From NCBI GenBank assembly GCA_051294375.1, contig CM119268.1, positions 2,451,917 to 2,476,934 on the forward strand: DNA of 25,018 nucleotides, written 5' to 3'. The notes below the pieces were generated by a model, which worked only from the letters and a program-made list of their open reading frames with translations, had not been told where the DNA came from and ran no database searches. The translations under genes and the position numbers were made by a program. This stretch comes from Paraspadella gotoi (taxonomy: Eukaryota > Animalia > Chaetognatha). Every line of letters begins with the position of its first letter. Within the stretch, counting starts at the first letter, position 1. Positions 2,852 through 20,900 of the stretch are shown here, in pieces.

Positions 2852-3228
2852 GAAAAGTGGATCCTTTCATCGAAATGTTATTCGTTTTTCCGAAAATGTT
2901 TTAAGTTGCCGCAAATGTCGTAAATCTTTGGCTGAGAATCATTGTGATTCGCTGTGATTCTTAATTCCCGATTTAACCCGGTGTGAATATTCACAGAACC
3001 AAATATCCTTTCCTTCCTGGATTATTGTCTAATTTTAATGTTAAAAAAAAAAGCATCATAAAGAAATCGCTTAATCAATCAATCAATAATCATGTATTAG
3101 TAATGATCTTTTCTCGTAATTCGGCCAAGATCGAGAATTTTACATTCCCGATACATTTGAAAAGAACTAAATCATAAAAGTATTCACAAAAATCAAAGGT
3201 TCGATTGAAAAAGTTAAATCAGCTTTTT

Positions 3229-3646
3229 CTAATTCTGACATTTAAAAGTTTGCTCGTTGACCTCACTCGAGGGAAATCGCAAAAAGGTAATGCTGATTCC
3301 GGGCACCATAGTTCTACCATCTACCATCGACTCTTTGCTGCGACCTTCACCGCTTAAGCTATTAAACTCTTTGCAATTTGCGAGATTTTTTTCCGTCTTA
3401 AATTTCATATTCACAATCTCGTCCCCTTTCTTTGCTTTGCTCATTGTTTCCCCAGCCGCAGCATCATTTTCTACCCCAGCAGCATCGTTCACTTCCCCAG
3501 CCGCAGCACCATTTCTTATGTAGAACCAGATTTGCTCGTAGTCTTCGTCCGAGTCGTTGAGGATCCCGTGGGGGACGTTGGAGGGAATGAAGACGCCTTC
3601 GCAAGAGTCGGCCGAGAGTTGGATGACTTGCCCGTCGAGAAGGAGA
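3229..3646 (-). CDS. Exon 2 of cupin-fold (DddK/DddW DMSP-lyase-like) protein: cupin motif 2, C-terminal extension and stop
   Basis: Acceptor tttgtttAG|T at 3648-3647. The phase matches exon 1 (AG+T = Ser). Encodes LLLDGQVIQLSADSCEGVFIPSNVPHGILNDSDEDYEQIWFY..., fitting cupin motif 2 G-x-x-x-P-x-x-x-x-H-x-x-x-N, and stays open to TAG at 3231-3229. Confidence 0.85.
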
Positions 3647-3956
3647 CTAAACAAAAATATGGATTCATTAATTAATTGAATAATTGATTAATTCGAGTTG
3701 AGTTAGTTATTGGTCGCGATCACACACGGGATTTTTATCAAATTATTTTTGTTGTGTGTGTGTGTCCCTCTCTCGCTCTCCCTCTCTATTCCCCTCTCTC
3801 TCTCTCTCTCTCTCTTTCGTTTATATCTTTAAATACTTTTCAACTTGGAAATATCATTTTGTAAATTGATGTATCTTTTAGGGGCACAATGTAGCCCAAA
3901 GCCCGTTTCCTTAATACAATTCAATTCTCTCTCTCTCTCTCTCTCTCTCCTCACAC
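3647..3956 (-). other. 310-nt phase-2 GT-AG intron of the cupin gene
   Basis: Donor TGCAG|GTGTGA, acceptor tttgtttAG|. AT-rich and contains two (GA)n tracts and a (CA)n tract. Removal joins cupin motifs 1 and 2 in frame at canonical spacing (TKGSC-S-LLLDG). Confidence 0.85.
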
Positions 3957-4216
3957 CTGCACGATCCTTTCGTCGGAAAGTAGACTTCGGCGGGTAAGTG
4001 TCGATGGTAAGTGAAGGTGTTTCCGGGCCTCACCCTCATTCTTCCGCACTGCGCCTCTTCGGCGGCGAAGTAATGCGTCCATTCGATGCAGTTGTCTTCG
4101 CTCAAACCCGGGGTGCGAAAATCCATCCATTCCGCGGGCAAAGGGGTCCGCTTCAGTTCCCATCTTCGGGAAGACGCCGTCTCGGTTGATGTAGTTTTTG
4201 TTGCTGCAGTTTTCAT
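3957..4216 (-). CDS. Exon 1 of cupin-fold (DddK/DddW DMSP-lyase-like) protein: Thr/Ala-rich leader and cupin motif 1
   Basis: ATG 4216, 260 nt. Encodes ...AEWMDFRTPGLSEDNCIEWTHYFAAEEAQCGRMRVRPGNTFTYHRHLPAEVYFPTKGSC with the metal-binding G-x5-HxH-x3-E-x6-G motif (HRHLPAEVY at 4006-3980). The true start may lie further upstream (see findings). Confidence 0.85.
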
Positions 4217-4389
4217 CGCTGCTGTAGTTGATGCTGTAGTTGATGCTGGAGTCGTAATTTGGATCGATAATGTAGTTTTCGCGGAAAAAAATATTAAACT
4301 TTGTTACTTTGTTCCTGAGAAATAGCCATATTGTGGCGAATCTCAAATGATTATCAAACTAATTAGTAATTAAACTAAATCGAAAGAAA

Positions 4390-4515
4390 TTTGATTGGTG
4401 AGAATAAGTTTCACTTGTCACAGGAAATGCATTCTTAATTTCACCGAAATTTACTCGAGGCCCATATCATACTCGTTATTTACCGCCTCATTCACGTGAC
4501 CTGAGATTGACCTGA
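4390..4515 (-). promoter_or_regulatory. Candidate proximal promoter of the cupin gene: perfect DR5 overlapping an E-box, plus a CCAAT box
   Basis: Minus strand reads AGGTCA-ATCTC-AGGTCA (4513-4497) continuing into CACGTG (4498-4493; GTCACGTGA). CCAAT on the minus strand at 4398-4394. Located ~180-300 bp upstream of ATG 4216. Confidence 0.4.
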
Positions 4516-13739: not shown

Positions 13740-15420
13740 CCGATGCGACGGAACTAAACCGACGGATGCCCACGAGTGATGCCGATGACGATTGCACGAC
13801 CCGCCACGACTAGATACCCGCGACGGCGCCCACGAACATGACGAATAACGACGATGACGATGATGCGCGGACGACTCCCTGCCACGAACCGATAGCGACG
13901 AGACCGAAGATGGTACGATTAATGACGATGCCCACCCGATGTATGGAGAGGATGACGACGAACGACTTTAAGATAGCGACGATCTACGGAACGCATCGTA
14001 CCGATAACCGAACACATTTGACGACCATGATGGATGACGACATTGACAAAGGCCTGGATAGCGACCGACGACGCCAAAGATGCCTCCTGATAACCTGACG
14101 TATGACGATGTTATGCCAGACGATGCCACGAGATCCCAGCGACGTCACGGCACGCATTGATGAGATAACGATGAGGACCCGATCCCATGCCCATTGTCCC
14201 GAGCGACCCGATTGCACGACGACCGACTAACCCGATAGCGCCTATGACGACGAACGAGCCACATAACGGCACGCATGACGATGATGGTAGACGGATGATG
14301 ACGCACGACCTAGTAGCGCCCGACGCTAACGAAAGAGATGACGATAACGACGATGACGATGATGGAGGGACTGGTATGACCGACTGCCCGAACGAACTAA
14401 GCGATGCCGACCGATCGACGAAGATGAACCCGATAACAATGCCATGATGATGATGGAGGATGATGCACGCAAGATAGCGACCGATCGCCCCCCCCCCCAC
14501 GCCACCACCATTGATCAATTCACGGACGCCCGATTTGACGATTTGATGGAGACGATGACCGAACCCGATCCAGCGACGACGATCCACGACACATGTGCCA
14601 CCGTCACAACCCGATTGACGCGCGCATGATGGAGACACGATGACGAAGATTAGCCGACCGATAGCTCCCGCCGACGCCACGGGAACATTGATCTCGATTT
14701 AACGACGCCATCCCGACGACTCTGATGGGAGACCCGATCATGACCTGGAAGATTCCCCTTAGCGACCGACGCACCAGAACCATGGCCCCCCCGATAACGA
14801 CAATGACGACTATGACGACGACTACTAAGATAGCGTCGACGACTAAGATATCAACAAAGACCCTGGTGATTGATAGCTTTTGCATACCAGAAGCCAAAAA
14901 TTGAAACTGAGTAGAAATAATAATTTATTCATAATGAATTAGCACAGTACTTTGAAGATGATTATGATGATGATGATGAAGATGACAACAACCATGGTGA
15001 TGATGGCAGCATTGACAAAGACCACAGGAGAAACCGAGCCAGAATTAAAAAATAATGATGACATAGACGACAAAGACGACTATGACGAAGACAATAACGA
15101 CGAAGATGGAAAAGACGACAGAGAGGATGACGACAATGATGAAGTAAAAAATGACAAAGAGAAAGACGACTAAGACGATGACGATAATGACAACGACGAT
15201 AAAGATGATGACGATGACGATGACGACAATAATGATGACGAAAAAGATGAAAAAGATGACAGAGACGACGACGACGACGAAGTAAAAAATTACAAGGAGG
15301 ACGACGAGAAAACCGACGAAGATTAAGACGATGTCGAAGACGACGACGACGACGACGTGTTCGCAATGAGGAGCAAACAACAACAACAACGACAACCGCC
15401 AGACAACATCGTATCAAGAA
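13740..15420 (+). repeat. (GAC/GAT)n-rich low-complexity region: noisy in 13740-14850, cleaner in 14950-15420
   Basis: Dominated by GAC/GAT/AAC triplets. In-frame stops (e.g. TAA 15171) and frame slips break the Asp-reading frame. Confidence 0.85.
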
Positions 15421-15563
15421 AGAACGAGCGTCGTATCGCGGAAGAGAAGCGACGAAACAACGAGAGAAATTTCTAAAAATAGATTCTTAGCGTCGGAGGC
15501 AAAACCCCGCTCCTTTTCAGCCGAAAGGAAAAAAAAAAGAAGAAAAGAGAATTGAGGGAGCTC

Positions 15564-16166
15564 TATTTTCGAAAAGCGCCCCAATTATATTTTTTTATAC
15601 CTGAACTCAATTTTAACTTTTATATTTAAACCAAATATGATTAGTCAATCCTTAAACCTTAACCCAAAACTGAAACCTTTAACCCTAATCACTAACCTAA
15701 ATCGCTCTGATGGCTGGATCTTGGTGAGAAGTTTCATGGTTCCAGCCTACAGGTCATTATTATTACTATCGCTTACCTATGCTTACCTTTTTCTTATTTC
15801 CAGTTCTTGATCTCTAAAGACTCATTAAATTTTGTGATATTGATACTCTCAGAAGGGTGTGCAAAAGACGGAAAACCCCGCTCATCACGATCCCCAATAG
15901 TCCTTACTCTGTGGGAAAATAAGAATGGCCATAAACTGCTTTGGGGTGTGGAAAACCCTTAAGCCTAGTTTCAAGCCCAGGACTTGTTCTATGGCTGCTA
16001 GAGGGGGTTAAAAAAATTGCGGATAGTCATCTTCAGCCCACTTGAAGCCTTATCCACAATCTTTAACCTAATCCTCATTTTAATCCCTAACCGTAAACCA
16101 AATATTAAAATCTAAAAATTCATTCAATTCTGAATTTAGGATGAAATGGGGCGTTCTGGGAAAATA
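15564..16166. mobile_element. ~600-bp non-autonomous element with inverted ends and two degenerate telomere-like (TAACCC) tracts
   Basis: Left tattttcgaaaagcgccccaattat versus reverse complement of right tattttcccagaacgccccatttcat. TAACCC/TAAACC-like runs at 15650-15700 and 16062-16100. Shares ttgaagcct(t)atcc with the 4596-4870 repeat. Confidence 0.4.
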
Positions 16167-16189
16167 AGTCCAATTGTGGATCTTTCATT

Positions 16190-16400
16190 GGAAGAAGAGG
16201 ACGAAGAAGACGACAATGATGAAGACGACGATGACGATGAAGAAAACGACGATGATGACGATGACGGCGTCTCGGGTGATGATGACGACGACGAAGAAGA
16301 CGACGACGAAGAAGACGATAACGATGATCACGACAACAACAAAAAAGACGACGGCGATGAAGATAAGAACAACGACGAACACAAAGACGAAGGCGAAATG
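16190..16400 (+). repeat. (GAC/GAT/GAA)n block, open as a poly-Asp/Glu reading frame (ORF 16146-16442)
   Basis: Triplet repeat block. The acidic frame is uninterrupted for 98 codons, but its ATG sits in the flanking inverted repeat. Confidence 0.8.
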
Positions 16401-16921
16401 AAGAAACAAGAAACACTGGACAAAGTAAACAAACAAATATGATCTGATTNNNNNNNNNNNNNNNNNNNNNNNNNNNNNNNNNNNNNNNNNNNNNNNNNNN
16501 NNNNNNNNNNNNNNNNNNNNNNNNNNNNNNNNNNNNNNNNNNNNNNNNNNNNNNNNNNNNNNNNNNNNNNNNNNNNNNNNNNNNNNNNNNNNNNNNNNNN
16601 NNNNNNNNNNNNNNNNNNNNNNNNNNNNNNNNNNNNNNNNNNNNNNNNNNNNNNNNNNNNNNNNNNNNNNNNNNNNNNNNNNNNNNNNNNNNNNNNNNNN
16701 NNNNNNNNNNNNNNNNNNNNNAAAAAAAGTCCCAGCGATTCGTATCGGTTTCGATCCGAGTCAAATTACTCCTTCGTGACGTCAACGATATGATTCTCAC
16801 TTCCGCCAAATTTTTAAACTAAGGTCAAAACAGAGAGAAAGCAAAACTAGGGACGACTGTTTCCCAAAAAAAAAAATCAATTTCCGACGAAATTTATCAT
16901 CAAAAAAATTCGTTTTTTTGA

Positions 16922-17895: not shown

Positions 17896-17959
17896 NNNNN
17901 NNNNNNNNNNNNNNNNNNNNATAAAGAGAGGGATAAATCCTCCATTAAAGATTCCTAAG

Positions 17960-20900
17960 CATTTTGTTTAAAGATGACTGTTTCCTGCCAGAGCAAAAAA
18001 TCATTCCCTGCCATGAAAACATCACTTATAATAATTTTAGTAAAAATATTGCCTGCCAAAACCCAGAAATTATTCCAACTGGCTGGGTAATAACAGAAAA
18101 AACATCTTAGGGCCAACGGAGATTGTCCGTACGAATTTCTCTTTGAAAAATGACTGTTCCTGCGCAAGAAAAAATCATTTCGACTGAAAAATCCCCTTTC
18201 AACTTTCTTATGTATATATATATATATCTCTAGCCAACAGAAATTATTCTGTGTGCAGACGAGCAAACCTGCTAATGAGAAATTTCCTTTAGGTTTTTTG
18301 GTTTCAAAAATGACTGTTCCTGGCCAGCAAAAAAAATTCCTGCCAAAAAAAAATCCCTTTAAATATTTTTAGTAAAATCGTCCTGCCAACAGAAATTATT
18401 CCTGCGTGAGAAAAATATACGTGCAATAAATTTCCTAAGCTTTTGTCCAAAAAAATTACTGTTTCCTGCCAAGCAAGAAAATCATTCCTGGCCCATGAAA
18501 ACCCCTTTATTATTTTTAGTAAAAATAGTCTTGCCACAGTAGAAATTATTTCCTGCTGCTGAAAACAACATCCTGCCCCCAACAGATTTTTACAGCATTT
18601 GTTATGAAAAAATGACTGTTCCTGCCAGCAAAAAATCAATTCCTGCCATGAAAAATCACCCTTTCAATTCTTTTAAGTAAAATAATCCGGCCAAAAAGAA
18701 ATTAATGCTGCTGTGGAAGAAAAAAATCCATGCTAATAGATTCCTTGGATTTTGTTTCAAAAAATTGACTGTTCCTGCCAAGCAAACAAGTCATTCTGCC
18801 CATGAAAAATCCCCTTTAATATTTTTAGTAACACATAGTCCTCCGAACAGAAAATACTTCTCCGCTCGCTGCGCAGCAAAAACATCCCTGCCAAAAAAAG
18901 ATTTCCTTCGATTATTGTTTAAAATAAATGACTGTTCCTGCCAACAAAAGTCATCTGCAAAAAACATTTTTACACCTTACTTCTTTTAGTAAGTACGCTT
19001 CCCTGAACAAGAACATTATTCCTGCATGTCCAAGAAAAAAATCCCTGCAAAAATTTCCTAAGTTTTTTGTTTGAAAAAATGACTTGTTCTCGCACCGACA
19101 AAATCATCCTGCATGGAAAATCCATTTAATATTTTAGTAAAATAGTCCTGCCAAACGAGAAATAATCATGCCTGTAGAGAAAAAAAATCCTGCTAACAAG
19201 ATTTCCTACAGCTTTTGTTACAAACAAATTCAACTGTTCCTCCCAAGCAAAAAGTCATTCTCGCATGAAAAAATCCCCTTCTTAATATTTTAAGTAAATA
19301 GTCTGCCAACAGAAATTAATTCCTGCTGTAAGAAAAAAATCCTGACTAATAAGACTTTCCCTTGGATTTTGTTTGAAAAAGAAACATGTTTTCCTGCCAG
19401 AAACAACGTCACTTCCGCTAGGAAATTCCCTTTACATATTTTTAGTAAAATAGTCCGCCAAACGAAATTATTTCCTGCTGTAAGAAAAAATCCTGCCAAA
19501 GAGATTCATACGATTTTTCTTTGGCACACCAATGACTGGCTTCCTTGCAGCAAAACATCATTCCCTGCCAATGAAAAATCCCCTTTACAATTCTTTTAGT
19601 AAAATAATCCTGGCGGCAAGAAGAAATATCCTGCTGTGAGAAAAAAAATCCTCAGTAACTAAGGGAGATAGTTCCTCGTGGAAGTGTTTTTGTATTAAAA
19701 AATGACATTGTGCCTGCCCAGCAAAAAATCATTCCTGCCCAATAGAAAAATCCCACTTTAATATTTTTAGTAAAATATCTGCCAACAGAAATTAAATCAT
19801 GCTGTGAGAAAAAAATCCTGCCAAAAAAGATTTCCTAGCTTTTGTTAAAAAAATTTCACTGTTCCTCGCAGGCACAAAAAGTCATTCCTGCCATGAAAAA
19901 TCCCCCTAATATTTTGTAGTAAAAATAGTCCTGCCAACAGAAATTTACTGCTGTAGACAAAAAATCCTGCTAAATAAGATTTCCTTGGATTTGTGTTTGA
20001 AAAATGACTGTATCCTGCCAGCCAAAAAGTACAATTCCATGCCTATGGAAAAATCCCCTTTTAAATTATTTTTAGTAAAATGTCCTGCGCAACAGAAATT
20101 ATTCCCTGCTCGTAAAAAAAAATCCTGCCAAAAGAGATTTCCTACGATTTTCCTTTGAAAAAATGACTGTTCCTGCAGCAAAAAATCATTCTGCCATGAA
20201 AAATCCCCCTTTCCATTCTTTAGTAAAATAAATACCTGCCAAAAAGAAAATTAATCCCTGCCTAGTGAGAAAAATCCTGCCTAATAAGATTTCCTTGATT
20301 TGCGTTTTAAAATCGACCTGCGCTTTCGCACGACAACACACCAAACTGACAACGAAAAGTCCCTTAATATTTTCTCACGTAACATAGTTGAACAGAAATC
20401 AATCCTGCGCTCGTGAGAACAAAACTCTGTCTAAGATCTTTCACACGCTTTCGCGTTTTAAACAACTCGCATGTTTCTTTGAGACTAAAACATTTGGCGC
20501 ACAAAATCTTTTTCACTCTCTCACTTTCCTATCAAAAGTCGCGCAACGAAATTAATCCATGCTGATAGGAAAAAAATCCTGACTAAATAGATTTCCTAAA
20601 GCTTATTGGTTCAACCAAAACTTAACATTCTCCGCCACAAAAAAGTCATATCCTCGCCATAGAAAAAATCCCATTTAAATATTTTTAGTGAAAAGGTCCT
20701 GCCAGAACAATTATATCCTGTCTCTCCAGAGGAAAAAAATCCCATGCTAATAAGATTTCCCAAGCTTGCTTCAAAAAAGACTGTTCCTGCCCAGCAAAAA
20801 CTCATTCCGCCACGAAAAATCCCACCAATCATTTATTTTGTTCCTGCCCACGAAAAATTAATCCTGCTGTAAAAAATACTTGAGAGCCAATCAATCCAAT

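Follow-up and report, generated by a model that had tools for sequence, protein, structure and literature searches.

Gene organization and splicing

The window, that is, the whole stretch of 25,018 nucleotides that was analysed, contains on its minus strand a spliced gene for a cupin protein. The frame runs from an ATG at 4216 to a stop codon ending at 3229 and encodes 225 amino acids once 310 nt have been removed between a GT donor at 3956 and an AG acceptor ending at 3647, the intron interrupting codon 87. The features of the locus are the following.

Coding exon 1, 3957..4216, minus strand: the first 86 codons plus two bases of codon 87, encoding a leader rich in Thr, Ser and Ala that is followed by the first half of the cupin (W46 at 4081, H71 at 4006, H73 at 4000, E77 at 3988, Y79 at 3982); covered by record 9 of run X5
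Intron, 3647..3956, minus strand: 310 nt, GT-AG, phase 2, GC 36%; contains (GA)n and ATTA repeats
Coding exon 2, 3229..3646, minus strand: second half of the cupin and a 94-aa tail (V111 at 3576, H113 at 3570, Q125 at 3534, W127 at 3528, Y129 at 3522); X5 record 9 shows no further skip
Tandem repeat, 3450..3514, minus strand: 21-nt unit, present 2.8 times where the tail begins, at the place of the Phe117/Tyr122 segment of the DMSP lyase DddK
5' region on the X5 contig, 4217..4402, minus strand: polymorphic 12-nt repeats; the frame stays open above the ATG as far as 4303
Short upstream frame, 4329-4294, minus strand: 11 codons in a phase other than that of the main frame, within the region covered by the X5 contig
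Start of the 3' untranslated region, 3000..3228, minus strand: the X5 contig extends 644 letters past the aligned stretch

Four nearby GT-AG pairs leave the frame open. Record 9 of run X5 aligns in two segments, record positions 1-443 to window 4402-3960 and 445-1093 to window 3648-3000, so that 310 nt are skipped, a size that among the four pairs only the 310-nt intron has. This joint is arithmetic on two aligned segments of a single contig; none of the listed runs is recorded as RNA, and the guess that X5 is an RNA run rests on the GT-AG skip. The skip is absent from the DNA run X2, where one contig reads 12 nt into the intron. A profile of the protein family described below, built without the rows of the window protein, scores the product of the 310-nt splice at 100.0 bits versus 89.4, 83.8 and 81.0 for the three alternatives, and the closest relative, P0126, aligns with the spliced protein across the junction free of gaps (46 identities in 87 positions). 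The gene is real and is spliced. The intron and the 225-aa product are those that an earlier note on this DNA had read from the letters alone, and the junction it had singled out for checking, 3957/3646, is the one at which the probable RNA run has a contig lacking exactly 310 nt; its residue numbers (W46, H71, H73, E77, Y79, H113, Q125 and W127) are likewise all correct. An upstream coding exon or a signal peptide was considered and rejected, as X5 is unbroken to 4402 and members of the family start near codon 1.

Run X2 also contains a second, divergent version of the gene, either another copy or an allele; over 3962-4324 it shows 26 differences along with two gaps. In its coding part three changes are silent and three replace residues 1, 9 and 12, with none listed in codons 30-85; the ATG at 4216 is lost, an in-frame ATG lies 14 codons upstream, the frame stays open, and 48 nt upstream are exchanged for 15. 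The distribution of these differences, together with the moved start codon, suggests a loosely constrained leader in front of a conserved core. The ATG of the 11-codon upstream frame sits in the portion that is replaced in this copy. The second copy is also seen at window 3497-3658, and in X2 the contig depths, near 85, 170 and 258, point tentatively to three copies with a common exon 2 core.

Host and genomic surroundings

The stretch is present in nine of the 11 runs listed; these nine come from three studies and are all labelled as the same organism, one of them possibly being the source of the window itself; it was unmatched in runs X10 and X11, from other organisms, which is no proof of absence. 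The (GA)n tracts of the intron match those found elsewhere in the window, and the same-strand gene that follows downstream encodes a peritrophin-A chitin-binding domain (CBM_14, E 5e-7). As judged from the sequence, a (GA)n-bearing intron beside a peritrophin-type gene fits an invertebrate genome and argues against a bacterial contaminant, in agreement with the case that the earlier note had made on the same three grounds, namely the intron, the shared (GA)n tracts and the animal-like neighbour.

The open frame with this domain, at 2-838 on the minus strand, leaves the window; it combines a hydrophobic N-terminus, the single CBM_14 domain, a Thr-rich stretch and a Gly-rich region, and is likely to encode a secreted chitin-binding protein. 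Elsewhere, at 13800-16440, there are long tracts of low complexity, rich in GAC/GAT and in Asp/Thr/Met, whose plus-strand frames are fragmented. Some 3 kb of degenerate repeats at 17950-20800, with words that recur in the translated frames, may be a satellite or the remains of a repeat array. Rfam matched nothing in the window.

A small family of cupins with copepod members

An HMMER scan of 1.84 billion representative proteins, of which the best 150 of 2009 matches were considered, gave bit scores against the spliced protein of 107 for P0126, 74 for P0243 and 46 for P0208, versus 37 for DddK. A second profile round returned 14 matches among 871 candidates, 13 of which belong together; the fourteenth, P0290 (E 5e-5), is placed elsewhere in the tree. 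As these searches were non-exhaustive, the count of 13 stands for a family that may be larger. P0126 is 53% identical to the spliced protein, the group of P0243 and P0282 is 40-43% identical, and the copepod group, which includes P0208 and P0285, is 28-35% identical; the identity to DddK is about 33% over a shorter stretch of 72 residues. Two members carry organism names, Acartia fossae and Calanus glacialis, both copepod transcriptome entries. The other 11 comprise eight ENA, JGI or Logan proteins and three from the source 'merc', which we take to be a catalogue of marine eukaryotes. By sequence comparison the spliced protein belongs, as a divergent member, to this small, uncharacterised cupin family, in which those that carry names are copepod proteins.

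Pfam Cupin_2 is above its cut-off in P0126, P0243 and P0208, and exon 2 of the window gene reaches E 0.0019, below the cut-off. With the Pfam DMSP_lyase model (PF16867, threshold 27 bits) P0208 scores 17.7 bits, P0243 15.7 and P0126 nothing; the DddK protein P0015, at 21.9 bits, is also below the threshold. Exon 1 alone yielded two candidates and no match in a word search, and no NCBIfam family.

No family member was confirmed in 185,579 prokaryote genomes of GTDB by two motif scans (8 and 142 pattern matches), nor in viral contigs by two further scans (4 and 180 pattern matches); a separate scan of viral contigs with a loose motif gave one chance match, and tblastn against plasmids returned generic cupins or chance matches only, and against phages nothing. 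In metagenomes a strict motif retrieved SAR11-type DddK and one DddK-like group, with a best score of 37 bits against the spliced protein, and a search with profile A6 was likewise dominated by SAR11-type DddK and one DddK-like group (best 120 of 1222 matches). Two full-length members, P0280 and P0291, lie on ENA contigs of 838 kb and 199 kb, and since P0280 is whole on its 838-kb contig, a prokaryotic family member is possible. P0289, a fragment of 69 aa with unrelated ends, resembles the family only at about residues 84 to 120 of the window protein; it looks like a single exon from a further family gene with introns.

Phylogenetic position and origin

The phylogeny was based on 56 rows and 130 columns, including 12 family rows with that of the window protein; no bicupins or near-copies were included, nor the fragments P0288 and P0289, and of the SAR11 proteins five were kept. 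The 12 family rows form a single clade (99/96), in which the window protein lies beside P0126 on the longest branch of the family (1.75), and one subclade unites members from two copepod genera. SAR11 DddK and five relatives make up a separate clade (100/100) with the window protein outside it, and a third clade (100/99), composed of ten proteins judged fungal-like by eye, excludes the family as well. Grouping of the window protein with SAR11 DddK was rejected by the AU test (p-AU 0.021, with the caveat of a long branch), so the nesting among marine bacterial DddK sequences that the earlier note would have taken as a sign of horizontal transfer gives way to a clade of its own in which the only named members are eukaryotic. 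Two deeper placements are both allowed: the family may be sister to the broad DddK clade (p-AU 0.58), or it may lie outside all DddK-like proteins (p-AU 0.57).

These results leave a direct transfer of dddK into the lineage unsupported. The patchy range of the family makes it plausible that the family as a whole is of ancient bacterial origin, and such a remote derivation from bacteria is probable, the motif scans of 185,579 genomes having confirmed no close prokaryotic member.

Structure and profile searches

Exon 1 alone, searched against the PDB, matched DddK entries in four of its five matches (best E 0.025). The profile A15, which consists of the family and the window exons and holds no DddK row, also placed DddK first, at 53 bits, versus 38.5 for the next entry, an oxalate decarboxylase, and 26.5 for DddQ; this bears out the earlier description of the protein as a cupin resembling DddK and marks DddK as its closest solved relative by profile. 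A PDB search with profile A14 was set aside as biased, that alignment containing DddK rows.

Models of two relatives support a single-domain cupin fold, both matching cupins, and differ in how far they single out DddK. With the P0126 model (mean pLDDT 65, core 80-90) Foldseek returned six DddK chains on top, at E 8e-10 versus 2e-7 for the next protein. In VIA-align the same model ranked DddK fourth, at Z 12.4, tied with TM1287, TM1459 and BacB (12.7-13.0), and for the model of the copepod protein P0208 (pLDDT 80) Foldseek put DddK at rank 3. The Atlas search gave generic Cupin_2 clusters with tied scores, one row in ten being auto-named as the DMSP-lyase family.

The active site compared with known lyases

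In DddK of Pelagibacter ubique (PDB 5TFZ, 6A53) the metal is reported to be held by His56, His58, Glu62 and His96, with Tyr64 as catalytic base, and the substrate cage to consist of Tyr21, Trp26, Phe108, Trp110 and Phe117, with Tyr122 anchoring the carboxylate (PMC10686828, PMC12582016). In the alignment H71, H73, E77 and H113 of the window protein match the four ligands and Y79 matches the base, as the earlier note had proposed, and this set of His, His, Glu, Tyr and His is kept in all 12 family rows, the N-terminally short P0286 included. The Tyr two residues after the Glu is unspecific, being found also in four of the ten unrelated cupins of the alignment.

The cage is a different matter. 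Two of its five aromatics persist, Trp26 as W46 and Trp110 as W127, while Tyr21 is exchanged for Asp (in a loosely aligned column), Phe108 for Gln and Phe117 for Ala. Tyr122, a change of which reportedly costs DddK more than 90% of its activity on DMSOP (PMC10686828), has no aligned residue in the window protein; Tyr stands at this position in none of the 12 family rows and in 33 of the 34 DddK-like rows. The Phe117/Tyr122 segment, in the form F-x4-Y, was found in none of the 11 relatives. The earlier account of the cage, with both tryptophans kept and Gln125 in place of one cage Phe, thus holds for what it named, and falls short in that Tyr21, Phe117 and Tyr122 are also without equivalents. 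Judged by these two defining pocket features and by the tree test, the window protein is not a member of DddK.

The family has features of its own. At the position of DddK Phe112 there is a Tyr in all 12 family rows (Y129 in the window protein). A family-invariant Cys (13 of 13 rows in alignment A17) is replaced in the window protein by Val, and at the cage position of Q125 its relatives have Phe, Leu, Val or Ile. The 94-aa tail, which begins with the 21-nt repeat, has no family match; the idea that its end hides the C-terminal strand of the family was rejected, as 90 of 500 shuffled sequences scored as well.

Common to the window protein and DddK are therefore the cupin fold, the metal set, the Tyr base and the equivalents of Trp26 and Trp110; unlike DddK, the window gene is spliced and eukaryotic, and its product belongs to a separate clade and carries the long tail. 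The metal core with a Tyr two residues after the Glu is a general feature of cupin lyases, described as H-x-H-x3-E-x-Y plus a distal His for DddW (PMC4437653) and for DddQ and DddU (PMC11497337), and it is present in the window protein; for DddW of Ruegeria pomeroyi and for DddU this likeness is by motif description only. DddK, DddW and DddQ/DddU are said to share little beyond this core, DddU being less than 15% identical (PMC11497337), from which it follows that pockets vary among true lyases.

Eukaryotes are not without cupin lyases. DddF, described as an active fungal cupin DMSP lyase about 30% identical to DddK and reported from ascomycetes only (PMC13738216), runs counter to the statement of the earlier note that the known eukaryotic DMSP lyases, of the Alma family or fungal DddP, are not cupins; the same paper cites DddW in Aspergillus (PMC13738216). 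Like the window protein, DddF is eukaryotic, has a single cupin domain and is a distant relative of DddK. Its existence makes activity in distant DddK-like proteins more likely and at the same time lowers the novelty of a eukaryotic one. DddF is delimited by an identity of at least 40% to the A. melanogenum protein; two fungal-looking proteins are 29-35% identical to the window protein, and the ten proteins of the fungal-like clade, judged by eye, keep the Phe117/Tyr122 segment, unlike the family considered here. In animals, the candidates for DMSP lyases are the Alma1-like (DL-L) genes of corals, which are thought to have been acquired horizontally and whose activity is described as not fully validated (PMC10349084, PMC10901607); their products have a racemase fold and are unrelated to cupins. 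A literature search that reached few subscription papers found no animal cupin DMSP lyase.

Proposed function

The reading that we tentatively prefer, at a probability of roughly 40%, is that the window protein is a DddK-like, metal-dependent lyase that would act by beta-elimination on DMSP or a related onium-propionate. H71, H73, E77 and H113 would bind a divalent metal, to which the carboxylate of the substrate would be coordinated, and Tyr79 would take the alpha proton, yielding acrylate and a neutral leaving group, which would be DMS if the substrate is DMSP. Less securely, W46, W127 and Y129 may form a rebuilt pocket that replaces the DddK lid of Phe117 and Tyr122; by strand alternation Y129 would point to the side on which positions 108 and 110 lie, and one might guess that it could take the place of Tyr122. 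For a lyase we counted the conserved core of the DddK set, the first rank of DddK in the profile search and in the Foldseek search with P0126, the activity of DddF, the variation of pockets among true lyases, the origin of the named or labelled relatives (Acartia fossae, Calanus glacialis and the three 'merc' entries) in marine plankton, and the second copy with its open frame and no listed change in codons 30-85. Against it we counted the lost cage and Tyr122, the unspecific nature of the Tyr after the Glu, the tie in VIA-align, the third rank with P0208, the long branch and the Val in place of Cys.

A serious competitor is that the family performs some other cupin chemistry, as an isomerase, epimerase, dioxygenase or different lyase, on an unrelated small molecule, its likeness to DddK being one of ancestry. 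The absence of the DddK lid throughout the family and the presence of a conserved Cys and Tyr peculiar to it are what one would expect in that case; two of the three structure-search results fail to single out DddK, the Atlas clusters are generic, and the tree allows the family to lie outside all DddK-like proteins. This is countered by the lead of 15 bits that DddK holds in the profile search and its clear lead in one Foldseek search, and by the sister relationship to the broad DddK clade, which the tree allows equally.

It is less probable that the family consists of lyases of which the window copy is degenerating or has been repurposed, with little or no activity. The window protein has the longest branch of its family, Gln at a cage position and Val for the family Cys; a repeat-derived tail replaces the C-terminal segment of the family, and the start codon varies between copies. 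Yet the frame is intact, a spliced contig exists, all five core residues are kept, and codons 30-85 show no listed change in the second copy.

A recent transfer of bacterial dddK or dddW into this one lineage, followed by the gain of an intron, is very unlikely and largely refuted. DddK-type proteins are indeed the best characterised matches, and the family is patchy, with no named member from a model organism among the matches listed (the best 150 of 2009, and the second round), but DddK, at 33% identity, is surpassed by relatives at 53% and at 40-43%, the window protein shares a clade with copepod proteins to the exclusion of the SAR11 DddK group, and the two motif scans confirmed no family member in the 185,579 prokaryote genomes.

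That the stretch stems from a co-sequenced symbiont, parasite or food organism, or that the copepod records are dietary contaminants, the family then not being animal, would agree with only two of 13 relatives bearing organism names and with the prey that plankton transcriptomes may contain, but is made most improbable by the recurrence of the stretch in nine of the 11 listed runs, all nine from three studies and labelled as one organism (one run possibly the source of the window), by the shared (GA)n tracts and adjoining peritrophin-type gene, and by a subclade that spans two copepod genera.

Implications

The gas DMS, released by the cleavage of DMSP, is climate-active and serves as a feeding cue. 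Should the preferred reading of a DddK-like lyase extend to the relatives of the window protein, marine invertebrates, copepods among them, would have cupin DMSP lyases of their own, of old bacterial origin, independent of DddF and with a rebuilt pocket; this wider proposal, itself rather doubtful, would mean that grazers release DMS and acrylate from dietary DMSP enzymatically themselves, and not solely by way of algal or gut-bacterial lyases. Animals, abundant grazers included, would then join the enzymatic sources of DMS, and the family would represent a new pocket design that dispenses with the Tyr122 lid of DddK. The candidates for such a function are the window protein, P0126, the copepod proteins P0208 and P0285, and P0280. 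If they are not lyases, they still constitute an uncharacterised family of metal cupins in marine eukaryotes.

The searches also brought up many DddK-like proteins, for example P0158, P0177, P0150, P0218 and P0006, in which the Phe117/Tyr122 segment is retained together with the catalytic core; on the strength of their aligned residues they are candidate DMSP lyases outside SAR11.
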